DNA from: Candidatus Pacearchaeota archaeon | GTDB lineage: Archaea; Nanobdellota; Nanobdellia; Pacearchaeales; GW2011-AR1 | DNA length: 64,000 bases | Direction: 5' to 3' | Assembly (NCBI GenBank): GCA_016181895.1 | Contig: JACOYL010000009.1 | Location: 3,346-67,345, forward strand | Part shown: positions 3,863 to 63,101 of the stretch, one piece after another | Layout of the letters: each line of letters opens with the position of its first letter | How positions within the stretch are numbered: position 1 is the stretch's first letter | The notes under the pieces: generated by a model | Database searches by the model: none | The model's input: only the letters and a program-made list of their open reading frames with translations | Told to the model about the DNA's origin: nothing | Translations under genes and position numbers: made by a program

Positions 3863-4312
3863 TTATTCTTCAGTTTTCTTCCCCGTCACATCCTCCGGAA
3901 TTCTGTATTCTTCCCATCGCACTTTCTTTTTATCAATAGTTTCCTTAAGATTTTTTTCGTGGTTGTTTATTTTTGCCTTTCCTGATTTGACTTCGACAAA
4001 AACAACTTCTTCAATATTCTTGTTGTCCGCGCCCTTGAAAACAAGAAAGTCAATCGGCTTTCCTAAAAAACGAACTTCGCTCGGGCTGTAAGGAAAATCA
4101 GGAAGATACGGAGCGAGTTGCTCTGAAAATAAACCTCCTAGCGTCGCCCTTGATTTTGCGATTGCATCCTGCCTGTGAATCGGTAGCTGATTTTCCCAAT
4201 GCCTGTCTCTTCTCATGACTCCGATAATGTGTCCGATAATTATTCCTATGAAGAGAAATAAAATTATTATTAAAATTGTGGAAAATTCCATTTTAATTGA
4301 GAAGTTTTGCAA
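3863..4312 (-). CDS. Membrane-anchored endonuclease related to archaeal Holliday-junction resolvase (PF10107-like)
   Basis: N-terminal TM helix, then 'SRATLGGLFSEQLAPYLPDFPYSPSEVRFLGKPIDFLVFKG...VVFVEVKSGKAKI'. Confidence 0.65.
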   Translation of the reverse strand: MQNFSIKMEFSTILIIILFLFIGIIIGHIIGVMRRDRHWENQLPIHRQDAIAKSRATLGGLFSEQLAPYLPDFPYSPSEVRFLGKPIDFLVFKGADNKNIEEVVFVEVKSGKAKINNHEKNLKETIDKKKVRWEEYRIPEDVTGKKTEE

Positions 4313-4607
4313 GTCTTCCTTTTCTGTGCATTAATCTTACTCTCGTTGAATTGTGAGTTAAACAATGTTTTGCATCACATTTTCTGACTTCATCATCGTA
4401 TCTTGGTACAAGCCCCGTTCTGCTATTTTTAGAGAAATTATATCCAATTAACACCCTTTTTCTAGGACTTCTCCCCATCCCTTCAATCGTTGGTAAATCA
4501 ATTTCTACAGGAACTCTTGAATTTAACTCCATAAATCCATAATATATCTCATCACCTATAATTACTTCAACTTCATATTCTATTGGTTTTTTATAATCAT
4601 AAACCAT
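4293..4607 (-). CDS. Hypothetical protein
   Basis: ORF 4293-4619. Met5 (4607) lies 1 nt after the uS2 stop codon, suggesting coupling. No motif recognised. Confidence 0.4.
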   Translation of the reverse strand: MVYDYKKPIEYEVEVIIGDEIYYGFMELNSRVPVEIDLPTIEGMGRSPRKRVLIGYNFSKNSRTGLVPRYDDEVRKCDAKHCLTHNSTRVRLMHRKGRLAKLLN

Positions 4608-4608
4608 C

Positions 4609-5544
4609 TTAATACACAACAGGCACCTCCAATTCTTCCTTCATCCACCAATCCATGTCGGGAATCCTGTCGATTGCGTCGATTCCTCGGGCTTTGCAAT
4701 ATCCTCTTGCGAGCAGGTAAAAAATCAAGCCCAAACTCTTGGAACTTTTGTTGTTTCCTATTATTACCTTGTCGGCGCCCTTTGCAAAATTGTTCGTGTC
4801 GCAAATCATCAAAACTTTTTTGTGGACATTGAGGGTGTCATGCAATGCATTTTTGTCAAGCCATGAATCAGTAACAATTGTAAGTTCATTTTCCATGAAT
4901 GTCGGAAGGTTTGTGTTTGTCAGGATTCCGGCGGGATATTTTTTCGTGAAAACTCTTATTCCCGTTAACTTTGAAAACATCTCCGCGGCGTTCCATCCGG
5001 TTTGCCTCTTGCACACGAGAATTATTTCCTCCGGATTGAACTTTGAAATAAATTCTATGGCTTCTTTTATTTTCTCGTCGATTATGTTTGTGTCGAAAAT
5101 CGCCAAGCCGTCCGCTCTCCGACGATAAACAAAGGGTTTCATGTCGGGAGTCACTGCTCTTTTGCCGATGTAAATTCCTGACTTGACATATTCTTCAAGG
5201 GGAATGAGCATTTCTGTTCTTTTCTTTGCCTTGACTTTTTCTTTCAGCTCTTCTGTCTTCGGTTCCAAAATCTGCTCCGAGAGTTTTTTCGCCCTTTCTA
5301 TAAGTTCTTTTTTCTTTTCCTCGATTGTTTTCTTTTCCTTTCCCGAAATCTCTGTTTCAAGCGATTCAAGTTCCGCAAGTTTTTCCTCTTCCTTGGAAAA
5401 TTCTTCTTTTTTTGCCTTGGGGGATTTCCTTGAAATTTTCTTTTTATTCTTTCCTTCTATTTTTTCAACAATTTCCTCGACAACTTCCTCTGCTTTTTCC
5501 AAACCCTCTTCAACCTTTTCCTTAATCTCATCAATAATTGCCAT
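4609..5544 (-). CDS. rps2: Ribosomal protein uS2 with a ~112-aa K/E-rich N-terminal extension
   Basis: The C-terminal ~200 aa ('GIYIGKRAVTPDMKPFVYRRRADGLAIFD...VCKRQTGWNA...ICDTNN') is canonical uS2. The N-terminal 112 aa are low-complexity K/E. Confidence 0.9.
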   Translation of the reverse strand: MAIIDEIKEKVEEGLEKAEEVVEEIVEKIEGKNKKKISRKSPKAKKEEFSKEEEKLAELESLETEISGKEKKTIEEKKKELIERAKKLSEQILEPKTEELKEKVKAKKRTEMLIPLEEYVKSGIYIGKRAVTPDMKPFVYRRRADGLAIFDTNIIDEKIKEAIEFISKFNPEEIILVCKRQTGWNAAEMFSKLTGIRVFTKKYPAGILTNTNLPTFMENELTIVTDSWLDKNALHDTLNVHKKVLMICDTNNFAKGADKVIIGNNKSSKSLGLIFYLLARGYCKARGIDAIDRIPDMDWWMKEELEVPVVY

Positions 5545-5563
5545 TAGAACTGTGGTGAAAATA

Positions 5564-5575
5564 GATTTTTAAAGT
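5564..5575 (-). promoter_or_regulatory. TATA-box-like element upstream of rps2
   Basis: Minus-strand 'ACTTTAAAAATC' centred ~26 nt upstream of the 5544 ATG. Supports use of the long ORF. Confidence 0.4.
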
Positions 5576-5624
5576 TATTTGTCAACATAACAATTCTTAA
5601 ATAATCTTGATATTTATTTGAGGG

Positions 5625-5855
5625 ATGGAAGACGAACTCATCCGAAAATTAGATGAAAGATACATTGGATGCGATATTAGGGGGCACAGATTGCCTAATC
5701 CAGAAAAAACTTATTGCAATTCTTGTTTTAGGAGATTGAATTATAATGCCACAAATGGGCTTTCAGAACGAGATCAAAGAAGTTTGGATAAATTAGCAGG
5801 ACTTACTTTATTGAGAAAAGAATTACTTCCTGCAGGAAAATTATTATCTCGCTAA
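5625..5855 (+). CDS. Hypothetical small protein
   Basis: 76-aa ORF between rps2 and eno on the opposite strand. Its 3' end overlaps the eno stop region. Confidence 0.3.
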   Translation: MEDELIRKLDERYIGCDIRGHRLPNPEKTYCNSCFRRLNYNATNGLSERDQRSLDKLAGLTLLRKELLPAGKLLSR

Positions 5856-7004
5856 ATCTTTCTCAATTTCAATCAATCTCTTTATTTTAACTTCCCTTTC
5901 TTTTCCAGCGATTCCGCATTTCAAAAAATCAGCCTGAAATCCGAAAGTCAAATCGGCAAGAATGTCTTCATTTGTTTCCCCGCTTCTGTGGGAAAAAATT
6001 ATTTTTATTCCATATTTTTTCGCCAATTCACAGACTGTTTTCACTTCTGTCAAATTTCCTATCTGATTCGGCTTTACGATCAATGCATTTATGCTTTTCA
6101 TCTTGATTGCTTTTTCAAGCCTTTCAGGATTCGTGACTGTCAAATCGTCGCCGACAATCAATTTATTTGCAAATTTTTTTGTCAGCTTGGAAAAATCTTC
6201 AAAATCTTCCTCGTCAAAAGGATCTTCAATATAAAACAAGTCAAAATTTTCTATAAGATTTGAAATGTATCTGAATTGTTCCCCTGAATCCCTTTTCAGC
6301 ATGGGATTTTTGTAAAGATATTTTTTCCTTGAATAAAAACTCGATGCCGCGATATCCAATCCAAGCGGGATTTCATATTTCAAAAGAACATCAAGAACTT
6401 CTTTTTCATTCAGGCTTGTTTCCCATGCATACTCATCATTTTTTATGCTTTTGAATTTCTCGTCAAATTCTTTCAAATCTTGTTCAACTTTTTCCTTGAT
6501 TTTTTTCATCAATTCAAAATTTTCTTTTGTTGATTTTTCATTTGGAATTAAAAGAAATTCCTGAAAATCAGGCTTTTTTTCATTGCCGGAATGTTTTCCT
6601 CCGCCAATGCAATTCCCGACAAGTCTAGGAAATTTTCTTGCCTTGGAATCAACGATTTCCCATACCTCCTTTTTCTTTTCTTTTGCCATTGCCTTAAGAA
6701 TTGCAGACTCCAATGCAAATAAAGTGTTTGCCCCGACATTACCAGAAACAATATCTTCAATTCTTTTCAAATCATCAAAGAAATCTATGTTCTCCATTGA
6801 AAAATAATCAGAGAATTTTTTTAACGTTTCAATGTCTCCAAGAAGATTTTTCTTGTAAGATTTTGCTTCGTGTTTTCCCTTTGACTTTCCATTCGGCGCG
6901 CTTGCCTTGAATTCACCGACATTTGTTTTTATTGAGACTTCGATTGTCTTCTCTTTGCGGGAATCAAAAATGGATTTCGCAGAAACACTTCTTATGACAA
7001 CCAT
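5844..7004 (-). CDS. eno: Enolase (short form, 386 aa)
   Basis: Signature 'SHRSGETNEDILADL' plus the N-terminal 'IFDSRKEKTIEVSI' pattern. Confidence 0.9.
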   Translation of the reverse strand: MVVIRSVSAKSIFDSRKEKTIEVSIKTNVGEFKASAPNGKSKGKHEAKSYKKNLLGDIETLKKFSDYFSMENIDFFDDLKRIEDIVSGNVGANTLFALESAILKAMAKEKKKEVWEIVDSKARKFPRLVGNCIGGGKHSGNEKKPDFQEFLLIPNEKSTKENFELMKKIKEKVEQDLKEFDEKFKSIKNDEYAWETSLNEKEVLDVLLKYEIPLGLDIAASSFYSRKKYLYKNPMLKRDSGEQFRYISNLIENFDLFYIEDPFDEEDFEDFSKLTKKFANKLIVGDDLTVTNPERLEKAIKMKSINALIVKPNQIGNLTEVKTVCELAKKYGIKIIFSHRSGETNEDILADLTFGFQADFLKCGIAGKEREVKIKRLIEIEKDLAR

Positions 7005-7074
7005 GAAATAAAAAATTCTCAGAACTTTTTAAAGGTGATTATTTTAAATGTAATCTACTTAGAATTTTATTCTA

Positions 7075-7575
7075 TCAAGGAAGGATAGCATCTTCCCAAA
7101 GATGTCTTTTCTCTTTCATTAATTCCTTAAAACCTTCCCAATCTTTATATCGGAAAATTTCATTAAATCTGTTTGCATTAACATAAATATTCCAAACATC
7201 TCTTAAAGGAATATGTTTAAACATACCATAACCACGACCAATAAATGTTTCTCCGACCACCCTATCTATTAAATTTTGTGGGATATTTTTTGCTAATTTC
7301 GTTCGGCCCTCAATATTTCCGGGTATAAAATCAGGGTAGATCTTGTTCATTTCATCATTGTCAAAATGGCTTTCATATATCCAGTTTCTTAAAAGAAATC
7401 TAGCGGCATTTTCTTTCGTTTCAATAAAATAAGGAGAACCAATACTCATTGTTATTGCATCACAATAAACAAATCTCTCTGTCGGTAGATGAGATATAAG
7501 CGAATCTCTTAAGTAATTGGCTTCTTTATTCCTCTTAAATCTGACATTTAATCTCAATCTATTTTCTTTTGTCAT
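7075..7575 (-). CDS. Hypothetical protein
   Basis: 166-aa ORF starting 1 nt after the stop codon of the upstream Tat-signal ORF. Confidence 0.45.
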   Translation of the reverse strand: MTKENRLRLNVRFKRNKEANYLRDSLISHLPTERFVYCDAITMSIGSPYFIETKENAARFLLRNWIYESHFDNDEMNKIYPDFIPGNIEGRTKLAKNIPQNLIDRVVGETFIGRGYGMFKHIPLRDVWNIYVNANRFNEIFRYKDWEGFKELMKEKRHLWEDAILP

Positions 7576-7576
7576 T

Positions 7577-8035
7577 TTATAATTTCCTAATAGTTTTGTA
7601 ATCTATTATTTGTTTAACTGAGATGTTCGGTCCATATTTGTCCCATTCTCTATGAGTAAAGGCACTTCTATTCAGGATCATCTTTCCGTTTTCATTTATT
7701 ACTTCTGGCGATATTTCAATAGTCATCTCTCCATCTTCGTCTGTCTCTAATCCAGAAACATATCCTGTGAGAGTGTATTCTTTATCTAAGTCAAAATCGG
7801 AGAACCATGGAGTAAATCCCCATTCATTGTCCTTTCTTGGATGTATTTTTATTTCTGCCAATTCAAAAGCTTCTCTCTTATCATAACGTCCTTTAGCTTC
7901 AGGCAATCTTCCTAATGATTCTTCTAAAGATGGCTGATATCTATCTTCAGCAATTTTCGGAACAGCCAAAGCTCCTGCTGTTAAAGCAAGTCCTTTCAAA
8001 GCTGTTCTTCTTGTGATTTTTCTTTCGTTTGTCAT
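7577..8035 (-). CDS. Secreted protein with twin-arginine-type signal peptide
   Basis: N-terminus 'MTNERKITRRTALKGLALTAGALAVP' has an RR motif and a hydrophobic region. Confidence 0.55.
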   Translation of the reverse strand: MTNERKITRRTALKGLALTAGALAVPKIAEDRYQPSLEESLGRLPEAKGRYDKREAFELAEIKIHPRKDNEWGFTPWFSDFDLDKEYTLTGYVSGLETDEDGEMTIEISPEVINENGKMILNRSAFTHREWDKYGPNISVKQIIDYKTIRKL

Positions 8036-8174: not shown

Positions 8175-9158
8175 ATGAGCAAACTGGATAAAATAGATTT
8201 GAAATTGCTGTCCGAGTTGGAAAAAGATTCAGAGCAAACACTTTCGAAGATTGCAAAGAAACTCAAAACTTCCCAGCAAGTTATTAGTTATAGGCTGAAG
8301 TCTTTGGAGGAACGCGGGATTTTGGGAGGATTTTACACGATAATTGACATTGCAAAATTAGGTTATACAAGTTACAGGACGATGATTCGTTTGAGCAATA
8401 TTACAGAAGAGAAACACAAAGAGATAATTAATTTCTTGATGAAACATAAAAATGTTCTCTGGCTTGTGGAATGTGGCGGGCGTTGGGATTTGATTGTAAA
8501 TTTCACGGCGAAAAACATAATTCATTACAATAATATTATGAAAGAATTTGTAAATAGATTCCCAAAACAAATGCAAAATTATGATATTTTAACAACGCTG
8601 GAAGTTATTTATTTTGGAAGAGATTATTTTATAAAAGAAGCAAGGACAGAAATAAAATCTTCCGGTTTCGGCGGAAAATGGGAAACGATTTCAACAGACA
8701 AGACAAATTTACAAATATTGAATTTAATTTCTGAAAACGCAAGAATTAATTCTGTTGAAATCGCAGATAAATTGAAAATAAGTCCGAATACTGTTTTATT
8801 GAGAATAAAAGAAATGAAAAAATCCGGATTGATACAGGGAACAAAACCTTTGATTCATCTAGAAAATATTGGCTATTCAGGATACAAGGCATTGATAAAA
8901 TTCCAAAATTTGACAGAGCAAAAAGAAAAGGAAATTGTCAATCATGTTAAATCAAATGCCAATATTGTCGGGGCGATAAAACTTGTTGGATTGTGGGATT
9001 TTGAAAGTGAATTTGAAGTCGAGAACAAAGAGCAAATGCTAAAGATTACAAGAAATTTCAGGGACAAATTCAAGGAAATTATAAAAGAATTTGAAGTAAT
9101 TCCGTTGTTTCACGAATACAGATATAATTTTTTTCCAGGAGATTTATTGAATGGATAA
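8175..9158 (+). CDS. Tandem (duplicated) Lrp/AsnC-family transcriptional regulator
   Basis: Two HTH_AsnC-like units: 'LDKIDLKLLSELEKDSEQTLSKIAKKLKTSQQVISYRLKSLEERGIL' and 'DKTNLQILNLISENARINSVEIADKLKISPNTVLLRIKEMKKSGLI'. Each is followed by a ligand-domain-like region. Confidence 0.8.
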   Translation: MSKLDKIDLKLLSELEKDSEQTLSKIAKKLKTSQQVISYRLKSLEERGILGGFYTIIDIAKLGYTSYRTMIRLSNITEEKHKEIINFLMKHKNVLWLVECGGRWDLIVNFTAKNIIHYNNIMKEFVNRFPKQMQNYDILTTLEVIYFGRDYFIKEARTEIKSSGFGGKWETISTDKTNLQILNLISENARINSVEIADKLKISPNTVLLRIKEMKKSGLIQGTKPLIHLENIGYSGYKALIKFQNLTEQKEKEIVNHVKSNANIVGAIKLVGLWDFESEFEVENKEQMLKITRNFRDKFKEIIKEFEVIPLFHEYRYNFFPGDLLNG

Positions 9159-15302: not shown

Positions 15303-15362
15303 TGTTGCGATGCTTTGTTTCTCCCCGATGCGTATGGGAATCGCAATGCTAATCGCTTTGTA
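15303..15362. repeat. Partial copy of the MITE-like repeat core
   Basis: 'gttgcgatgc...ccgatgcgtatgggaatcgcaatgctaatcgctttg' resembles the cores of 32625-32820 and 46317-46437. Confidence 0.5.
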
Positions 15363-32569: not shown

Positions 32570-32624
32570 TTCCAGAATAACGCAACCGCACTTATAAAAT
32601 TAATCTAATCTTTTGCTTTGTTTA

Positions 32625-32820
32625 AAAATTGACTCACTCCTTCGTCGTTCGCATATTAATAATGTTAATACGAAAACATTTAATTTTTCGTGTTTCGCGT
32701 CTCGTTGCGATGCCTATGCAATGGCACGTAATCGCTGCTTTTATTACTCCATGCCTCGCGATGCGTATGCGTAATCGCTTTTAAACAGCGACTACTTGTT
32801 AAACAAAGCCTCGGCAGAAT
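32625..32820. mobile_element. MITE-like repeat, full copy (196 bp) with 11-bp terminal inverted repeats GCTTTGTTTAA
   Basis: Left end 'gctttgtttaa', right end 'ttaaacaaagc'. Internal blocks are collinear, in reverse orientation, with 39624-39833 and 62908-63094. Shares a 25-nt exact match (32767-32791) with 42911-42935. Confidence 0.6.
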
Positions 32821-32824
32821 TGTT

Positions 32825-33220
32825 TCAGTCTTCCCCTCTTATTCCCGACTTGTCCGTCTTCATCATCGTCAAATCTATTATGTACTTTCCCTCGCTTACC
32901 TTGAATATTATCGGCCTGTCTTTTCCAAAAAGATTCACGACGTCGATTTCATATTTGCCCGGGCTTATTACTCTTACCGATTCAATGTCGAGGATCACGG
33001 GAACCATTTCATCCTCCATGTTTGCCATTTCCCTTATGTCCTTCTCGATTTTTTCTTTTTCCTTTTGCGGCAGTTCAATGGGATTTTCCCTGGCTTTTTT
33101 CAATTGCTCGTCCCTTATGTAAAAAAAGAAATGCCCGCCGCATTCGCCGCATCCGTCTAATATTTCCCTGCTTCCCGCGGGATATATTTTTCCACAGTGC
33201 ACGCATTGATGGCTACCCAT
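32825..33220 (-). CDS. Zn-ribbon protein (DUF2072/COG3364-like)
   Basis: 'CVHCGKIY...CGECGG' double CxxC at the N-terminus. Operon context with DUF2073 and the GTPase. Confidence 0.55.
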   Translation of the reverse strand: MGSHQCVHCGKIYPAGSREILDGCGECGGHFFFYIRDEQLKKARENPIELPQKEKEKIEKDIREMANMEDEMVPVILDIESVRVISPGKYEIDVVNLFGKDRPIIFKVSEGKYIIDLTMMKTDKSGIRGED

Positions 33221-38220: not shown

Positions 38221-39579
38221 TTATTTTTTCTTATGCTTATGTTTCCTTTTTTGTTTTTCGATTATGTTGAATATTGCGTAAATCAATGCAATCAAAATTC
38301 CAGAGATTATCAAATTGTAGAAATTGAAAAACGGAAGCTGCACCAATGCAGGACATGCAAGTTTCTTTGAGTCAACTTCACAGGAAGCAGGCTTGTCTAA
38401 AAGTTCTCCACTCCATGTTGCCGTCCAACTGTATGAAATAAATCCGTCGCCGCATCCATCAGGGTCGCTGCTTGATGCCTTGATTGTGCATTTTCCTAAA
38501 ATGCTTTCCTGCCCTGTTGTAGGATCGTAATTAACAGTCTGAAATGCCGAATCGCATGTTGATGAAGATGTATCCCACTCGCAGAAACAAAATGACGGAG
38601 GCGAACATTCGCTGCTTTCAGGAACACTGTCCTCTGCAACATCGCACACATCATTATCAGTGCAATATGCTTGCCCATAATCAGAACACACAAACTTGTC
38701 ATCGCAGAATCCCGCGGTTAAAACAGTTCCTATCTTCAAATCCCCGCTTGTGGCTAATGAATTTCCCGCATTTGAAGCTTCGAAATAAAATTCCATTTCA
38801 TCATAATCTTCAACAAGAGCTTCAAGAAGAGGGTGTCCTTTATCCAAATCTATTTGAGTAATAAGCCATTCATAGTTTGCTCTTTCATCAGCACCTGTTT
38901 GGACTGTCACGGTTTTTATTAAGTCGTCTGCAGTAAGAGTATCATCCCTTTCTTTAATCTCAAATGTTATTTGCGTTCCTTGGGGAAGATTTGAATTCTT
39001 TAATATCATCCATATTTTTGTTGTGTCTGGAACAACATCTATCGTGCTTACAGACGTTACACCATTTTTAGACCATATGGCAGATGTTATTAGTGAAGAA
39101 GATGTACAATAAATTTTAACCCCGTAATCATTAATCGCTCCAATATGGGCATTTGTTTCTGCCGATAATGATAATACAGGGATGGGATATTTATCCGGAG
39201 CATATTCAGGGTCATTTGAATCTACACACTCCAAATCCCCGTAACAAACAAAATTTGCAAGAATTGTATAAGCAGTTCCCGATGGGATTTCAGCGTGTGC
39301 GTTTGTTGCAGATGAGAGTCCGATAACTTTGTTGGTTCCGGAACATGCTGCGTTGCCGCCGGCAAAATTACAGCAAACATATTTGTATCCGGAAGGACTC
39401 GCTTCTGTTGTTGCGCCGTGCGCATTCGTTAGGTCTGAAACTCTCATCAATTCATAATCAGAACCGGTATCGGTACAGGCTGTACTTTGAATCGAACAAC
39501 TTTCTCCGGTCGCAAAAACTCCGATTGAAAGAAACATTGTAAAAATCAACGTCAGTAATAAAACCACACCGCTTTTCAT
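38221..39579 (-). CDS. Cys-rich surface protein with three 'S..TNAH' repeats and a C-terminal TM/basic anchor
   Basis: Signal-like 'MKSGVVLLLTLIFTMFLSIGVFA'. 'SDLTNAHG', 'SSATNAHA', 'SAETNAHI'. Very Cys-rich throughout. C-terminus '...ILIALIYAIFNIIEKQKRKHKHKKK'. Start set at Met8 from TATA spacing. Confidence 0.6.
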   Translation of the reverse strand: MKSGVVLLLTLIFTMFLSIGVFATGESCSIQSTACTDTGSDYELMRVSDLTNAHGATTEASPSGYKYVCCNFAGGNAACSGTNKVIGLSSATNAHAEIPSGTAYTILANFVCYGDLECVDSNDPEYAPDKYPIPVLSLSAETNAHIGAINDYGVKIYCTSSSLITSAIWSKNGVTSVSTIDVVPDTTKIWMILKNSNLPQGTQITFEIKERDDTLTADDLIKTVTVQTGADERANYEWLITQIDLDKGHPLLEALVEDYDEMEFYFEASNAGNSLATSGDLKIGTVLTAGFCDDKFVCSDYGQAYCTDNDVCDVAEDSVPESSECSPPSFCFCEWDTSSSTCDSAFQTVNYDPTTGQESILGKCTIKASSSDPDGCGDGFISYSWTATWSGELLDKPASCEVDSKKLACPALVQLPFFNFYNLIISGILIALIYAIFNIIEKQKRKHKHKKK

Positions 39580-39623
39580 CTCCCCTATAACAAACCGCAT
39601 TTTATAAACTTTAATATTCTATT

Positions 39624-39877
39624 GGCTTTGTTTAATAAGTAACCACTGTTTAAAATTGGCTCGCATTCTGCTCGCGATTGATGAAAGAATTAACCAAAAA
39701 ACCATTACGCATAGCGATTAGCCATACGCATAGGCAAACACTAAATAAAAAAATATCGCGAGACACGGAAAACTAATGGGTTTTGCATTAACGTTATTAT
39801 TAATATGCGAGCGAATGAAGTGAGTGAGCCATTTTGTTTAGCAAGTCAATAAAAATTGTTTAGCAAGTCAATAAAAA
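39624..39877. mobile_element. MITE-like repeat copy with a perfect 22-bp tandem duplication at its right end
   Basis: 39624-39706 aligns at ~85% with 62908-62991. The right arm is collinear with the reverse complement of the left part of 32625-32820. 'ttgtttagcaagtcaataaaaa' occurs twice, at 39834-39855 and 39856-39877. Confidence 0.6.
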
Positions 39878-39903
39878 TCAAGACTTTTTCAACAAATCTT
39901 ATT

Positions 39904-41100
39904 CTATTCCCCCTTCCAGTTTATCATCGGCTTTATGTGCTTTATTATCTTGATTGATTCTTTTTGCGCTTCCATGACTTCCGAGATGTTTTTGTAAGCC
40001 ATCGGCAATTCATCGAGTGTTTTATTGGAAATAGTTCCTTTTATTCCTTTCATTGACTCTTTGAATTGCTCCATCGTGTATTTTTCCCTAGCTTTTTTTC
40101 TGCTCATGCTTCTTCCTGCCCCATGGCTTGAAGAGTTGAGGAATTTCCCGTTTCCTTTTCCTACTACAAGAAAAGAACCGTCTCTCATGTTTCCCGGAAT
40201 AATTCCTCTTTCATTTTTTTTCGCGGGCGTGGCTCCTTTTCTGTGAATGAAAAAGCCGTTTTCATAAATTGCATGATTGTGATTTTTATTAACCCAAATT
40301 TCGTATTTCAAATCTTCTTGAAGAACCCCTTTTAAAATCTCAATAATTTGATAAGCTATTTCGAGCCTGTTCAATAAAGCGTAGTCCAAACCGAATTCAA
40401 GAACATTCAAATATTCTTTTCCGATTTCCGAATTGGAATCCAGGGGAAATGTTTTTTCATATTTTGTTTTTTCCCTGCTTCCCGAAGCGCTTATCATGTA
40501 TTTTTTTGCAACATTGTGCCCGATGCCCCTGCTTCCGGAGTGGATTATAAGCCATAATTCTTCACTATTCTTTTTCTTCGGGGGTTTTGCAAAGGGGGTG
40601 TCCCCCTGCTCGTCTGTTCCCAATTCAATGAAATGATTTCCTCCTCCCAAAGTTCCAAGATGCCTTATTGCAGTGGTTTTTAAATAATTCAAAACATTTT
40701 TGTCATGCGGTTTTTTTTCAAACTTTTCTAGAATTTTCTTGAAATCTTTTTTTGTTTTCTCCGTGATTTTTTCTGGTTTGTTGTAGCTCCCGACACCCAT
40801 TGGAATTTTTCTCATTACTTGGCTGTAAATCCTGTCCTGATTTTCTCCGACTCTTTCAATAAGTTTCTTGCCTTTGATTCTCAACGCAATCAAGCCGCAG
40901 CCAATGTCAAAACCAACCCACGCGGGCACGATAAATCCCTTTGTTTTCAAGACAGCGCCTATTGGAGCTGCATATCCCAAATGCGCGTCAGGCATCAATG
41001 CCGCGGCTACAACAAACTTTTCAGAATAGCAATTTTTGAACTGTTCCAACGTTTCCTTGTCAACATCTATCGCGTAATTGTATATTTCTTTTGTTTTCAT
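39904..41100 (-). CDS. rtcB: RNA 3'-phosphate/5'-OH ligase RtcB
   Basis: 'MPDAHLGYAAPIG', 'GGGNHFIE', 'IHSGSRGIGH', 'NHNH', 'SSHGAGR'. Start reassigned to 'MKTKEIY' (41100). Confidence 0.9.
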   Translation of the reverse strand: MKTKEIYNYAIDVDKETLEQFKNCYSEKFVVAAALMPDAHLGYAAPIGAVLKTKGFIVPAWVGFDIGCGLIALRIKGKKLIERVGENQDRIYSQVMRKIPMGVGSYNKPEKITEKTKKDFKKILEKFEKKPHDKNVLNYLKTTAIRHLGTLGGGNHFIELGTDEQGDTPFAKPPKKKNSEELWLIIHSGSRGIGHNVAKKYMISASGSREKTKYEKTFPLDSNSEIGKEYLNVLEFGLDYALLNRLEIAYQIIEILKGVLQEDLKYEIWVNKNHNHAIYENGFFIHRKGATPAKKNERGIIPGNMRDGSFLVVGKGNGKFLNSSSHGAGRSMSRKKAREKYTMEQFKESMKGIKGTISNKTLDELPMAYKNISEVMEAQKESIKIIKHIKPMINWKGE

Positions 41101-42102: not shown

Positions 42103-42957
42103 TCACCATACCTTTATCGTCAAAAAACCTATTTGAAGATTTGCATCGCTGTCAAGATACTGCAGCGGAAATGTTGTTGCGTAAACATTTGTGTTTGGAA
42201 TTCCCCCGCATGCTTCAATATTTGGTTCAATTACTAATGTTCCATCTGCCGATTCAAACCTGAATGTAAACTCGTTTCCCTCGGGAACTCCAAGTCTTGT
42301 TTTAATGGTTTCTCCGCAGTCCAGTTCATATTCATCTTTCAATGCATAAATGTTTGACTCAAGGATTTGAGTTTGTTCTTCGACGAGGGAACCAACGGTA
42401 TAATCACTTACAGGATGGCAGCCGCTCATACTAACCTGATTTTGCTCTAATGCTTCTGAATAATATATCTTGAAAAAAAAACCGTTTGTCTGCAAATCTC
42501 CTGGTGCCCAAAAACCAACCTGTAAACTATTGCCAGAACGCGAATAATCAAAATTTTTAGAGTTGTTTTTTATTTTTAGCTGATTATTTGTAATATATGA
42601 TTCAGCAATTTGGTTGTCTCCGCTGCCAATTATATTTTGTAGGCTAACACAATCTTTATCTGGGCTTATCGGTTCGCCATCTATAGTCATCACTGTCAAA
42701 TCTCCAACCCTAAATTCCTCAACCAATGAAAATCGGAAAAAATCCAGCAACGATTGTTTGCTTGCCTGCGTTTTCAAGAACGGCTCTATTGCGGAGAACA
42801 TGAAAATTATGAACATTATGAAAATCACGAAAGACAAAACAAATCCTATTTGGGTTGCGCCCCTTTTCCGAGTTTTCGAGGAAAACGAGTGAACTCTTTT
42901 TTCAGTGCTTCGCGATGCGTATGCGTAATCGCTTTGTGAAACCCTTTTAGTTTTCAT
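42103..42957 (-). CDS. Pilin-like protein with a long (33-aa) basic leader before the class III motif
   Basis: '...SSKTRKRG/ATQIGFVLSFVIFIMFIIF'. No alternative start codon lies between 42957 and the hydrophobic core. Confidence 0.55.
   Translation of the reverse strand: MKTKRVSQSDYAYASRSTEKRVHSFSSKTRKRGATQIGFVLSFVIFIMFIIFMFSAIEPFLKTQASKQSLLDFFRFSLVEEFRVGDLTVMTIDGEPISPDKDCVSLQNIIGSGDNQIAESYITNNQLKIKNNSKNFDYSRSGNSLQVGFWAPGDLQTNGFFFKIYYSEALEQNQVSMSGCHPVSDYTVGSLVEEQTQILESNIYALKDEYELDCGETIKTRLGVPEGNEFTFRFESADGTLVIEPNIEACGGIPNTNVYATTFPLQYLDSDANLQIGFLTIKVW
42911..42935. repeat. 25-nt exact copy of the MITE core inside the pilin leader coding region
   Basis: 'cgcgatgcgtatgcgtaatcgcttt' is identical to 32767-32791. 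Confidence 0.85.
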
Positions 42958-44554: not shown

Positions 44555-44814
44555 TTTTTATCTTTTCTTTTTTTAAATAATTTACTTTCAATATATCTTC
44601 CAAAATTTGTTTTAAATAAAATTTCTATAAGTATGAATATAAGTATTAAATGGATAATAAAGAACCATGTACGATTTAGTTTATTTCCTAAAATAAAAGT
44701 TAGAAAATCTCCAATGAGGCTTGCCCCCACTAATACTAATATTATAAAAAGGATTGTCACTGAAATTAATCTAAATTTTTCTTTCATTATAAAATTCCTA
44801 TTTTTTATTTCCAT
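44545..44814 (-). CDS. Small membrane protein between the two platform genes
   Basis: 89 aa with 2-3 TM segments. Overlaps both neighbours. Confidence 0.45.
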   Translation of the reverse strand: MEIKNRNFIMKEKFRLISVTILFIILVLVGASLIGDFLTFILGNKLNRTWFFIIHLILIFILIEILFKTNFGRYIESKLFKKRKDKKWN

Positions 44815-46139
44815 TACACATTCGGCTGTTTTAATTGAAGGAAAACGAGGAACGCTATATTTATTCCGATGACTCCGAGAATCATAATAAGGGTAATGGC
44901 GCTCGTGCTTAATGAAATTCCCAATCCGGAAATCCTCATCATCATCAGCAAAAGCATTAAAATCATGGGAGCCGCGATTACAACGGAAATGTAAATGTCC
45001 ATGAAAGTTTCCGCGGCTTTCGTGGATTTTTCCCTTTCAAGATTGTATTCAAAAAGCATGGTCTCCGCCCTTTCCCCGAAAAATTTCACCAAGTCTCCTC
45101 CGGAACTTATCGTCGTTGAAAGCCCGTTGAACAAATCCGCGAGTTTTTTGCTCGCGGTGTTGAAACTGCTGTTTCTCAGGGCGGAGACAAAATCCTGCCC
45201 AAGAACATTCACTGTATTGAGAAGCTTGTTGAATTCTTTTTCCAAATAAGGATATTCTTTTGTTGAAATTATTATGTTGAACATTTTCGTCGGATCAATT
45301 AATGAGCCAGAAATCGCAGCCATGTTTATCGTCGCAAAAGGCAGTTCCTGCTCGATTTTTTTTCCGACAGAATCCCTTTCCAGAGAAGGATAAAAATACA
45401 TGAAAAGCAATGTCGTCGTTGGGAAAATAAAAATCAGCCAGAATGTTTTCAGAAATCTCAGGGCAATGCTTTCAGTCCTCAAAGTCACAAAAGGAAGAAT
45501 GGTTCCAATATTGAAAAAAAGCAGAAACACCACAATCAAGACGGCGGCAAAAAGAGAAATCAACGTTGTGAGAATGATGACGGAAAGATAGCTCCTCAAA
45601 AGAAAATTCATGTTTGCCTTCACGATGTCAACCTGCAATTCCCTGAATCCGTATTTTTTTATCATCTCTGCGGAAAATTCCGAGAAAAGCTTGTTTGCGA
45701 ACCCAATATATCTGCTCGGCTTTTTTATTTTTTTTCTTTCGACTTTTTCCTCCTCCTCTTTTTGCTTCAGCCTTTTCAACGTTTCCTTTTCAATTTTTGA
45801 AATCTTGTATTTGTTCTGGAATTTGAGAAACTCGGGAACACTGAGAAAATTTTTTTTCCGGGATTTTCCTTCTGCTTTTCTTTCCGGAATTATTTGCATT
45901 ATTCTGGATTTCAAAGAGGCATTCAAGGACAATTGGTTCAATTTTTTAACGATTCCGTCGCCAACTTTTTTCATCTCTTTTTTCAGGGTTTTTATCTGCT
46001 CTTCTATCTCTTTTTTGTCTCCTGAATTGGATTTTTTTCCCATTTCTTTTGAAAAGACGTTTATCTCCTTGACCATTCTTACTTCCTTTGAAATGTCCCT
46101 TTTAAAGTCGAGAAAAAAATCTTCTTTTTTATTCAGCAT
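44814..46139 (-). CDS. Type IV filament platform protein, single T2SSF domain with a K/E-rich N-terminal extension (TadB/FlaJ-half-like)
   Basis: 'ELPFATINMAAISGSLIDPTKMF...LRNSSFNTASKKLADLFNGLSTTISSGGDLVKFF' plus TM helices. Confidence 0.75.
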   Translation of the reverse strand: MLNKKEDFFLDFKRDISKEVRMVKEINVFSKEMGKKSNSGDKKEIEEQIKTLKKEMKKVGDGIVKKLNQLSLNASLKSRIMQIIPERKAEGKSRKKNFLSVPEFLKFQNKYKISKIEKETLKRLKQKEEEEKVERKKIKKPSRYIGFANKLFSEFSAEMIKKYGFRELQVDIVKANMNFLLRSYLSVIILTTLISLFAAVLIVVFLLFFNIGTILPFVTLRTESIALRFLKTFWLIFIFPTTTLLFMYFYPSLERDSVGKKIEQELPFATINMAAISGSLIDPTKMFNIIISTKEYPYLEKEFNKLLNTVNVLGQDFVSALRNSSFNTASKKLADLFNGLSTTISSGGDLVKFFGERAETMLFEYNLEREKSTKAAETFMDIYISVVIAAPMILMLLLMMMRISGLGISLSTSAITLIMILGVIGINIAFLVFLQLKQPNV

Positions 46140-46308
46140 TCAAAACCTCCGCGATTTTTTCCTGAATTTCAACCATTGTTTTTTTCGTTTTGTTGAATTT
46201 TTCAACGTCACCTGCTTTATAATATCTTTCAAGGCTTGGTTCTAAGTCCTCCATAGATTTCACCATTTGCTCGAGAAAAGATGTATCTTTTTCCATGTTA
46301 TTCACCAT
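46129..46308 (-). CDS. Small coiled-coil ORF (59 aa) coupled to the platform gene
   Basis: Below the track cutoff. 'MVNNMEKDTSFLEQMVKSMEDLEPSLERYYKAGDVEKFNKTKKTMVEIQEKIAEVLNAE'. Its stop codon overlaps the start region of the 441-aa ORF. Confidence 0.35.
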   Translation of the reverse strand: MVNNMEKDTSFLEQMVKSMEDLEPSLERYYKAGDVEKFNKTKKTMVEIQEKIAEVLNAE

Positions 46309-46316
46309 TTTTCTAA

Positions 46317-46437
46317 TTTTCCGTGTTTCGCGATGCTTTTTTATTCAGTGTTTGCCGATGCCTTTCGTTGCGAAGCGTATGCAATCGCATCGCTATGCGT
46401 AATCGCTTTTCAATTTAAAACAGAAATACGTTATTAA
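46317..46437. repeat. Partial MITE-like repeat copy
   Basis: 'ccgtgtttcgcgatgc...gtgtttgccgatgc...gctatgcgtaatcgctttt..tttaaaacag' is collinear with the 32625-32820 and 39624-39877 elements. Confidence 0.6.
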
Positions 46438-46644
46438 ATTTTACTTAACTGGATATTATTCCCATTACCTTCATCGCGATATTAATGAGGTTATCCAACC
46501 ACCAACCCCTGACCATCGACCCAAAAGAATGTTAACTAATCATCAAATTTTATTAAACAAATTAAAAAATTCTTTACATTAACATTTATATCAATAAGAT
46601 AGTATGATAATGCGAGCGTATTTTTAAAATTCTTATTTTTCTGC

Positions 46645-48216
46645 CTATTGAATCCCGAATTCCCTTAAAACTTTCTCGGGTTTTTTGTAATATTCGTTTA
46701 TTATTTCCTGGACTTTTTCAAACCCGAAAATTTTTCTTTGATACATCATGTAAATAATCTTGCTTCTTCTTCTGAACTCAAGCTCGATTTCCTCGATTCT
46801 TTGCCCCGTCATTCTTGAAATTTTTTCGAAAATTCTGCTGTTTCTCTTGAAATAAAAACTGTCGTCAATCGGATTCCACGTGAATGGAGTGTTTGTCAAT
46901 GCAACTCCTTCCGGAGTTATGTTTATTATTTCCACGACTTCCTTGAGTTTTCTCGTTTCCTGTTTTTTGACAACCGCGTGCGTCATAACACAAACAGCGT
47001 CGAGAACATTAACAAGCGAAGGAGAAAGTTCTATCGGAGGGGTTTCAAGCCTTTTTACGACGGTATCGACGGAGTCCGCGTGCATCGTGCTTATTGAACT
47101 GTGCCCTGAGGCCATTCCCTGGAACAAAACAAAAGCCTCCTTGCCTCTGACTTCCCCGACAATCACGTAATCCGGATTTTGCCTGAAAGAGCTTCTCAAT
47201 AACGCGAACAAATCAATTTCCCCCAAGCCGCCTATTCCCGTAGCCGTTCTTGCAACGCTGGGCAGCCAGTTTTCCCTTGGAAGATTCAATTCCCTCGTGT
47301 CTTCGATGCTTACAACTCTTGACTCTGGGGGAATGAAAAAAGCCATTGCATTCAGCAAAGTTGTTTTTCCCGACGACGTTCCTCCTATGATCAATATGTT
47401 CATTTCATTTTCAATAAGCAGCCAAAGATAGGCAAGCATCTCGGGGCTTAAAGTGTTGAATTCGATAAGCTGCGGCGGCGTCCATGGTTCTTTCGTGAAT
47501 TTTCTTATCGTGAATGTTGGTCCTCTTGATGTGATGTCTTTAGTGTATGTCGCATTTACTCTGCTTCCGTCGGGCAAACTGCCATCTAAAATAGGATTTG
47601 CGTATGAAATGTATTTCCCGACCCTTTGCGCGAGTTTCTCCACGAAGCTCGCGAGTTTCTCCACGTCATTGAAAATAACATTTGTTTTCATGTTTCTGTA
47701 CATTCTGTGGACAATGTAAACCGGCGTTTCGGCGCCGTTGCACTCAATGTCCTCCACGAAATAATCCCTCAGCAACGGTTCCGCCTCGTTGAATCCGACG
47801 AAGTTTCGCGCAAGATAATAATAAATTTTCTTGAAGCTTTCATAAGGAATGTCCAATCCGAGTTCAACGGCAAGAATCCTGAACATCTTGTCAATGTAAT
47901 CAAGCAAAACATTTATTTCCTTTTCTACGATTGTGTCGAAATTAATCATGTTCTCCATCGCGGAAATAAGCTCTTCCCTGTAATATTCTTCTTTTTTTGT
48001 CAAAATCGGCTCCTCAATCTCATAAACCAGTTCGGAAATTTTGTTGTTCCAATAAATGTGAGCGAATGCAAAAGGAGCAATCAACGTGTATCTGACATTG
48101 ACTTTTGTCTTGTCATCTGTTTTTTTCAATCCTGGGATTTCAGGAGAGAAATTTATCTCCACTTTTGGATAACTCTGGATTCCAACTCCAATGAGGTTTT
48201 CTTTTTTTATTTCCAT
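46645..48216 (-). CDS. FlaI/PilB-type secretion ATPase (archaeal type IV filament assembly ATPase)
   Basis: Walker A 'GGTSSGKTTLLNA', 'SIEDTRELNL', 'GEVRGKEAFVLFQGMASGHSSISTMHA'. FlaI-like N-domain 'YTLIAPFAFAHIYW...YEIEEP'. Confidence 0.9.
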   Translation of the reverse strand: MEIKKENLIGVGIQSYPKVEINFSPEIPGLKKTDDKTKVNVRYTLIAPFAFAHIYWNNKISELVYEIEEPILTKKEEYYREELISAMENMINFDTIVEKEINVLLDYIDKMFRILAVELGLDIPYESFKKIYYYLARNFVGFNEAEPLLRDYFVEDIECNGAETPVYIVHRMYRNMKTNVIFNDVEKLASFVEKLAQRVGKYISYANPILDGSLPDGSRVNATYTKDITSRGPTFTIRKFTKEPWTPPQLIEFNTLSPEMLAYLWLLIENEMNILIIGGTSSGKTTLLNAMAFFIPPESRVVSIEDTRELNLPRENWLPSVARTATGIGGLGEIDLFALLRSSFRQNPDYVIVGEVRGKEAFVLFQGMASGHSSISTMHADSVDTVVKRLETPPIELSPSLVNVLDAVCVMTHAVVKKQETRKLKEVVEIINITPEGVALTNTPFTWNPIDDSFYFKRNSRIFEKISRMTGQRIEEIELEFRRRSKIIYMMYQRKIFGFEKVQEIINEYYKKPEKVLREFGIQ

Positions 48217-56035: not shown

Positions 56036-56218
56036 TAATTTTTAAATAAAATGCGAAAAATATTTAATACGATTGAAGAAGTTGTTACTGAGAAGGTGAG
56101 TGCAGAATAAAAACATCAGACAACTTTTCTTATTCTTCCGGATTTGACATCTTCCAAGCTGTCTTTGAATTGCCTTATCAAATCAAAACTCTTAAAAACC
56201 CATTTCCTTTTCTTCTTT

Positions 56219-56478
56219 CGCAGACTAGGTTGGCGGGTTAGCCCTCCGCTATTTGCAAACGGGCTTCATGGCAAACTGCGAGGAAGACGTGACAGACGCG
56301 TTGAAAAGTCTTTATTTGGACGTTGACGTTTTGTCCGCTTTGATCTTGCAGGTGCGAAACGGGTCAGGCCTTGATCGGAGCAGCCCTAAACATTTGTTAA
56401 GGTGCTTGGCGGGTTACAGGACCGAGAAAGAATGAAGGAAACTATTCAGTGTGTTTGAAGCAACCTTCCGAGTCTGCG
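56219..56478 (+). ncRNA. Signal recognition particle RNA (7S/SRP RNA), ~260 nt
   Basis: Local GC-rich island. Helix-8 motif 'GGGUCAGGCC..UCGGAGCAGCCC' (56361-56386) matches the universal GGUCAGGUCC...GGAAGCAGCC. 5' 'CGCAGACUAGG' pairs with 3' 'CCGAGUCUGCG' at 10 of 11 positions. Alu-like 5' 'GGCGGGUUAGCCCUCCGC'. TATA-like 'cttaaaaa' ~24 nt upstream. Ends approximate. Confidence 0.75.
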
Positions 56479-56484
56479 TATAAT

Positions 56485-62907: not shown

Positions 62908-63094
62908 GGCTTTGTTTAAACAGTAATCGCTATTTAAAATTTGGCTCGCATTCTGCTCACAATTGATAAAAAAATTAACTAAAAAACAATTGGTCTTGTA
63001 TTAACCTTATTAGTAATATGCGAACCGTGCCATCGGCGTTCGAGGAGGAGCCGTTTTGTTTAATAAATCAAAATTCGGAATTCTTAAACAAAGC
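62908..63094. mobile_element. MITE-like repeat, full copy (187 bp) with GCTTTGTTTAA terminal inverted repeats
   Basis: Left 'ggctttgtttaa', right 'ttaaacaaagc'. 62908-62991 aligns at ~85% with 39624-39706. Confidence 0.6.
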
Positions 63095-63101
63095 AGAATT
63101 A

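Follow-up and report, generated by a model that had tools for sequence, protein, structure and literature searches.

IS903B is bounded by inverted repeats (IRL/IRR) of the form GGCTTTGTTGAATAAATC and has a direct repeat of 9 bp (PMC10569121). The IS903 target motif is given in a secondary table as WTTYA-N9-TRAAW (PMC2577343). A bulk census of 2024 recorded many MITEs in a Woesearchaeal genome, the families of which were not described (PMC11602168). Our literature search revealed no paper giving for archaea the terminus reported here.

In the present study we analysed a family of repeats in a 64-kb stretch of archaeal DNA (the window). We conclude, with a probability of about 0.88, that these repeats are non-coding, internally rearranged MITEs of an IS5-family cut-and-paste DDE transposon near the IS903 group that is abundant in DPANN archaea. 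They are an ordinary kind of mobile DNA, in a family whose identity is now firmer.

Results

Host of the window

The window is AT-rich (36% GC) and encodes the archaeal markers CCA-adding enzyme, OapC-like protein, RtcB and proteasome alpha. Among the best relatives of its proteins are those in Pacearchaeota and Nanoarchaeota MAGs. A divergent archaeal SRP RNA is present at 56218-56479 (+; 80 bits against an Rfam gathering threshold of 96.5, E = 3e-16), and its divergence is as expected for a DPANN lineage. Marker genes, SRP RNA and protein relatives thus indicate a DPANN-type archaeal host. No close relative of the window genome was found in the databases: the nearest homologue is 47% identical, and protein identity to the nearest relatives compared for empty sites is 45-62%.

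Full copies and their termini

The window contains three full copies, the first of them inverted, as the first-pass annotation had claimed and as pairwise BLASTN bore out (c2/c3, E = 4e-20; c1/c2, E = 1e-17, with c1 inverted). The copies and the duplication flanking c2 are as follows.

32614..32810, minus strand: MITE copy c1, 197 bp, in the opposite orientation to c2 and c3 (nhmmer E = 1.4e-28)
39615..39623: left copy of the c2 target-site duplication, TATTCTATT, perfect 9 bp
39624..39899, plus strand: MITE copy c2, 276 bp (nhmmer E = 4e-43 and 2e-6)
39900..39908: right copy of the c2 target-site duplication, TATTCTATT, perfect 9 bp, including the RtcB stop codon at 39904-39906
62908..63095, plus strand: MITE copy c3, 188 bp, the backbone form without GC-rich module (nhmmer E = 5.7e-44)

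The terminus GGCTTTGTTTAAnAAGT is common to all three. The left-type terminus of c1, GGCTTTGTTTAACAAGT, starts at 32810 and reads leftwards, and the other end is TGCTTTGTTTAAAAATT at 32614; the termini of c3 are GGCTTTGTTTAAACAGT and ...GAATTCTTAAACAAAGCA. These are the two copies with perfect 11-bp terminal inverted repeats (TIRs), in line with the earlier description. Copy c2 begins with GGCTTTGTTTAATAAGT and has a degenerate right terminus, AGATTTGTTGAAAAAGT, which matches at 13 of 17 positions and ends at 39899. This end was set by homology to the other copies (the nhmmer alignment runs to the end of the model) and, with the 9-bp repeat TATTCTATT, it corrects the previously proposed end at 39877. 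A perfect 22-bp tandem duplication (TTGTTTAGCAAGTCAATAAAAA twice, 39834-39877) lies in the right part of c2 and copies an internal terminus-like motif. The block 'ggctcgcattctgctc...', previously assigned to all copies, occurs in c2 and c3 and not in c1.

Exact GCTTTGTTTAA was found five times in the window, at copy ends only: 32615 (+), 32799 (-), 39625 (+), 62909 (+) and 63084 (-). When one mismatch was allowed there were 12 matches against 3.9 expected, a number reached in 0 of 100 shuffles. The longest ATG ORF in the window copies encodes 26-40 aa, and none exceeds 40 aa. Global identity between the copies is 52-56%, indicating that they are old. Each full copy is indeed located upstream of a minus-strand gene, as had been pointed out, yet the minus strand holds nearly all genes in 31-50 kb. 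Copy c1 directly adjoins a homologue of OapC (origin-associated protein; 32825-33220, -).

Target-site duplications and empty sites

The 9-bp duplication of c2 abuts termini that were independently defined by homology. Because its right copy contains the RtcB stop codon, c2 was inserted into the ~39-nt spacer between RtcB and the next gene. That gene starts at 39579 (452 aa, P0121, in agreement with the database protein) and not at the ATG of the longest ORF, 39600; a TATA box ~22 nt upstream of the start (region 39579-39609) implies a leaderless mRNA. No in-register target-site duplication was found at the ends of c1 and c3, so we infer their mobility from homology only. Copies c1 and c3 have lost their duplications and c2 keeps its own.

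Outside the window, inverted pairs of the 17-nt terminus GGCTTTGTTTAAWAAGT bound elements of 0.07-5 kb.

65-66 bp: L013, L020, L021 and L024 (mini-MITEs)
179 bp: L022 (window-type MITE)
717 bp: L002
1.0 kb: L005
3.7 kb: L007
4.1 kb: L017
5.0 kb: L047

Nine of these have perfect 9-bp target-site duplications (L013, L021, L024, L022, L002, L005, L007, L017 and L047), giving ten in total (eight loci, c2 of the window, and L047). The duplication of L022, which belongs to the same subfamily as the window copies, is CATTAAAAC. L020 is the only one of the ten TIR-bounded elements with no 9-bp direct repeat at its termini.

We also searched for sites without the element. A syntenic RtcB-homologue pair in a distant relative (L057) has a 164-nt spacer that lacks it, and the matching promoter of a 167-aa gene in another distant relative (CGAAGGATATTTAAATA; L035) likewise lacks it. 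The element-free spacer and promoter give weak support to insertion. No exact empty site could be aligned, the L057 and L035 relatives being too distant (45-62% protein identity). The window gene that starts at 39579 and its syntenic counterpart in L057 are laid out alike.

Distribution of the terminus

A scan for the 30-nt terminal pattern GCTTTGTTTAANNNGTANNNNCTNTTTAAA, with one genome per species, revealed 26 loci in MAGs against ~0.1 by chance (our own estimate). The loci are mostly in Nanoarchaeota, Woesearchaeota and Pacearchaeota MAGs, together with three Hadesarchaea contigs and one contig each of Omnitrophota and Ca. Oleincola; viral contigs yielded only one match. Extra look-ups by transposase returned mostly one insertion in different samples, or diverged ends, and added few new independent sites.

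In MAG JBBSYQ (Hainich groundwater), the MITE copies L022 and L035, from different loci, share 99.4% identity, and the family was probably active there recently. Several contigs of the MAG have one of their ends within a near-identical MITE (L001/L035, L003/L032, L014/L030); the MITE copies probably break its assembly. A second subfamily, GGCTTTGTTTAATAAATAATTyTTGTTTAAAyTGCC, is present in the same MAG.

The terminus or the transposase was also observed on contigs binned as bacterial (L008, Omnitrophota MAG; P0056, Fusobacteriaceae MAG) and on two Hadesarchaea contigs and one unclassified-archaeon contig (L004, L010, L023). In the latter three the motif CTGTTTAAAAAGTC is triplicated. The occurrences binned as bacterial or Hadesarchaea reflect either mis-binned DPANN contigs or horizontal spread.

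Transposase and relationship to IS903

Three elements (L007, L023 and L016) carry an intact transposase with DDE_Tnp_1 and a SWIM zinc finger. The L007 element (4133-7804), which represents a sister subfamily of the window copies and comes from a different genome, has TIRs as in those copies and the 9-bp duplication AGAAGTATA. Its transposase (419 aa, encoded at 6509-7768) matched Pfam PF01609 (DDE_Tnp_1) with E = 1.7e-21 and scored 139.6 bits on NCBIfam transpos_IS5_2, 0.4 bits below the cut-off of 140. The non-autonomous elements L002 and L017 retain C-terminal transposase remnants within their right ends. The protein family comprises at least 6,462 clusters at E <= 1e-10, which bear the source names 'transposase' or 'IS5 family transposase'.

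tblastn with a related transposase revealed no homologue in the 64-kb window, in agreement with the first-pass annotation, and tblastn found no cognate transposase in the JBBSYQ and Ga0208375 loci. Among the loci examined, no transposase-carrying element had a window-type interior. The ends of the window copies are homologous to those of transposase-carrying elements. These common ends, the inverted termini and the 9-bp target-site duplications (c2, L022) support the earlier proposal of non-autonomous mobile elements. The following features of MITEs were found: small size without coding capacity, inverted termini, a target-site duplication of fixed length, and ends shared with an autonomous element.

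The archaeal terminus GGCTTTGTTTAATAAGTA is identical to the IS903B repeat GGCTTTGTTGAATAAATC at 15 of 18 positions; inverted repeats that start with GGC and resemble GGCTTTGTTGAATAAATC, a feature of the IS5/IS903 group, are thereby present. BLASTP aligned the IS903B transposase (from plasmid Rts1) with the L007 protein over the whole DDE domain (E = 4e-9, 21% identity). A bacterial IS5-family element matching the archaeal protein (L027) has GGCGTTGTTGCAAAA ends. Terminus, 9-bp repeat, transposase alignment and L027 ends make it likely that the parent family is an IS903-like branch of the IS5 family, with an added SWIM domain.

Defence-type cargo recurs inside the TIRs of full-length relatives (L037-L046, L060-L062 and L069 included). 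L047 (1936-6906) carries a C5-methyltransferase and an MwoI-like nuclease (Pfam PF27366), and L007 has a 230-aa ORF of the same length and position as this nuclease, without a Pfam match. L017 (2820-6882) and the L037 series carry a type IIG Eco57I-like enzyme, and L005 (799-1826) a HEPN-like protein. The type IIG cargo among the full-length relatives is Eco57I/MmeI-like, and EVE-domain proteins also occur.

Element anatomy and the GC-rich module

The window-type backbone is ~180 nt long and is found in c2, c3, L022, L026/L031, L034 and L036. Its left end is GGCTTTGTTTAAyAAGTAnnnnCTGTTTAAAATT, in which the terminal motif recurs as the inner CTGTTTAAAA (cf. L069, TTTGTTTAATAAGT-AGTTC-TTGTTTAATAAGTC). 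The interior contains GSYTCRC ... GYGAGCC repeats, and the right end consists of two facing termini.

The GC-rich block "GCGATTACGCATACGCATCGCGAA", with core AAAGCGATTACGCATACGCWTCGCGAARCACTGAA, is an internal module that varies between copies: c3 and L022 lack it, c2 has it once (39694-39763) and c1 twice (32669-32739 and 32738-32784), and in L026 and L034 it has another position in the backbone. L034 (~8190-8330), a MITE of another species, contains two identical 56-nt GC-rich modules in tandem, which indicates that the module grows by tandem duplication. Three further sites in the window were assigned to the module.

46314..46438, minus strand: decayed fragment consisting of the GC-rich module and an inner left-terminus remnant, TTTAATAACGTATTTCTGTTTTAAATTG (nhmmer E = 1.8e-9)
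42884..42940, minus strand: isolated GC-rich module, GCGATTACGCATACGCATCGCGAAGCACTGAA (nhmmer E = 6e-12)
15318..15361, minus strand: possible highly degenerate GC-rich module (nhmmer E = 0.055 with a model built without this site; no BLAST match)

The first corresponds to a partial copy reported at ~46.3 kb and is well founded: the 48 nt from 46314 to 46361 are 88% identical to c2 (E = 5e-10), the module alone occupying 46314-46414. More weak remnants lie beyond it in the spacer 46297-46644. The exact 25-nt match that had been noted at 42911-42935 is also real and corresponds to 32757-32781. The proposed partial copy at 15303-15362 is marginal, with the values given above.

The isolated module at 42884-42940 lies in frame at the 5' end of ORF 42103-42957 (-), which encodes a pilin-like protein. 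There the module translates as 'SDYAYASRS', part of an N-terminal extension of 36 aa ahead of KRGATQIGFVLSFVIF, a motif similar to a class III (prepilin) signal peptide; the ORF has no alternative in-frame start further down. Neighbouring genes (44814-48216) encode a T2SSE/T2SSF-type ATPase and platform protein.

We read the module as a variable part of the MITE interior that is prone to slippage. A nested transposon flanked by a 9-bp duplication of its own was considered on account of the repeats AAAACCATT/AAAACTAAT in c2 and AATAAGCGA twice in L026; this reading is weakened by L034, in which the identical boundary occurs as a plain 56-nt tandem repeat. A CRISPR-like arrangement was rejected, as the tandem units of L034 are identical, spacer included.

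Structured RNA and in-situ decay as alternatives

It is improbable that the repeats are small structured RNA genes or a cis-regulatory RNA transcribed from the TTTAAAA box in the left end. This box is TATA-like; however, it belongs to the second TTGTTTAAWAAGT repeat (L069). GC-rich segments are conspicuous in a genome of 36% GC, the helix GCTCRC/GYGAGC has one compensatory change among five copies, and in the minus strand of the c2 module a hairpin of 10 bp precedes T6 (z = -2.5). However, folds of the GC module gave z values of -0.04 to -1.3 in 9 of 10 strands (few copies, with low power), and the two inverted-repeat pairs of L026 cross and do not nest (by inspection). Alifold analysis of five backbone copies (200 columns) gave a weak consensus fold of -13.4 kcal/mol, in which the covariation term was +2.3, and Rfam had no match at the repeats either at the gathering threshold or at E <= 10. 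The most conserved part of the repeat is the terminus, which is common to transposase-bearing elements and is flanked by duplications. The missing Rfam match, the weak folds and the positive covariation term speak against the structured-RNA alternative of the first-pass annotation. A C/D-box sRNA was dropped because c3 does not preserve the TGATGA of c2 (by inspection). Origin-recognition boxes, prompted by the neighbouring OapC-like gene, were also dropped, since the copies, which have TIRs and duplications, are scattered across 30 kb.

We consider it very unlikely that the repeats are in-situ relics of full-length transposons, with interiors deleted independently at each site. Internal deletion does occur: in the mini-MITEs the initial 37 nt of L007 are fused to its final 30 nt at the direct repeat CTGTTTAAAAAGT, so that these elements arise in this way; L002 and L017 keep transposase remnants. 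The window copies, however, have no such remnant, and L022 and L035 are nearly identical at different loci. The ~180-nt non-coding backbone is common to c2, c3, L022, L026 and L034 in different genomes and loci, which indicates that a deletion derivative spread as such.

Fixed distance between element ends and promoters

The flanks of 55 non-redundant ends were aligned at the terminus. TTTnTAAA at -23..-16 and TT at -13/-12 were present in 35-39 of the 55 ends, and 48 of 88 TATA-like hexamer starts fell in 3 of 40 positions (binomial P ~9e-31). Read outward from the element, the flank motif is the BRE-TATA promoter (AAsnTTTAWAAA) of the flanking gene, and across the family the element end lies ~13 bp from this TATA/BRE-like motif. 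All three window copies (flanks 32614, 39624 and 62908) keep the register at the end facing the downstream gene, in either orientation. Among elements with both ends known, the motif occurs on at least one side in all but L069 (by inspection of flanks), and elements between divergent genes (L013, L024, L047) have it on both sides. L070, an independent insertion, has no flank motif.

It is extremely unlikely that the repeats do not move and serve as regulatory DNA, be it as duplicated modules of promoters or operators or as clusters of binding sites ahead of minus-strand genes. The three full copies do lie within 15-25 bp of the TATA box of the downstream gene, and a GC-rich module without the rest of the element is located both between divergent genes, in their promoter region (15.3 kb), and at the 5' end of a gene (42.9 kb), but the repeats have defined termini and 9-bp duplications, copies occur in both orientations, transposase and cargo genes at other loci are bounded by these same ends, the genes' own BRE/TATA lies outside the element, and the matching promoters of relatives work without it. 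Two objections raised with the first description, that the similarity might be confined to AT runs and that the copies might be duplicated promoters without termini, are both ruled out by the termini, the target-site duplications and the shared ends.

The promoter register of the MITEs is the one feature worth more attention; the insertion distance is strikingly fixed. The TATA part of the register may reflect either a target preference of the transposase, perhaps for sites similar to its own TTTAAWAAGT, or the very short tolerated spacers of a compact genome. The transposase might target archaeal promoters, such that the 9-bp duplication starts ~4-6 bp upstream of BRE/TATA; we regard this as a tentative and rather doubtful idea. 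Targeting of this kind could use TTTWAAAsnTT, which resembles the element's own subterminal site, or DNA bound by TBP/TFB. If true, it would constitute a prokaryotic 'safe-haven' integration system, and the fixed promoter distance would be of wider interest if it came from targeting and not from compact-genome selection. Between tightly spaced genes, the MITEs could then serve as insulators or terminators, together with their GC-rich module (in some copies a hairpin and T-run).

Discussion

The mechanism that we propose for these MITEs starts from a transposase (SWIM + DDE_Tnp_1, ~415 aa) whose gene lies outside the window; supplied in trans, it would bind ends of ~35 bp. Each end would offer a terminal site, GGCTTTGTTTAAWAAGT, and a second, subterminal TTGTTTAAWAAGT-like site, both predicted from the repeated motif. 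The transposase would excise the element and insert it with a 9-bp staggered cut, giving the 9-bp target-site duplication. The internal changes that the window copies have accumulated comprise gain, loss and tandem duplication of the GC-rich module of ~35-60 nt, and the 22-bp duplication. At present the family is presumably inactive in the source genome.

This reading gives a clean label, IS903-like MITEs and not RNA genes, to puzzling intergenic repeats of an archaeal lineage that has been little studied. Bacteria and DPANN archaea have in common the end sequence of IS903, a duplication of 9 bp and a part of the target motif. In DPANN MAGs, where the repeats break assemblies, automatic annotation of ends, duplications and cargo (restriction-modification, HEPN-like) is now possible.

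The family resembles the known prokaryotic MITEs (IS5-derived; archaeal catalogue, PMC11602168) in that its members are 65-276 bp long, non-coding, AT-rich, intergenic and multi-copy, with TIRs, target-site duplications and a transposase presumably acting in trans. It differs from them in its modular interior, the GC-rich unit of which varies by gain, loss and tandem duplication, in a right end made of two facing termini, and in a range that spans DPANN and Hadesarchaea. Transposons that carry restriction-modification or defence genes are similar to the full-length relatives, which are TIR-bounded, have 9-bp duplications and contain passenger genes, whereas the window copies have no genes. The likeness to IS903/IS903B lies in the terminus (15/18), the 9-bp target duplication and the DDE_Tnp_1 catalytic domain; the target motif WTTYA-N9-TRAAW has TT at -13/-12, as in the archaeal flanks. 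In contrast to IS903, the family has an archaeal host, a transposase ~100 aa longer with an N-terminal SWIM domain and 21% identity, and ends with a second subterminal repeat. IS903 is 1.06 kb long, whereas the archaeal autonomous relatives reach 3.7-5 kb, often with restriction-modification or HEPN-like cargo, and the window holds their non-coding derivatives only.
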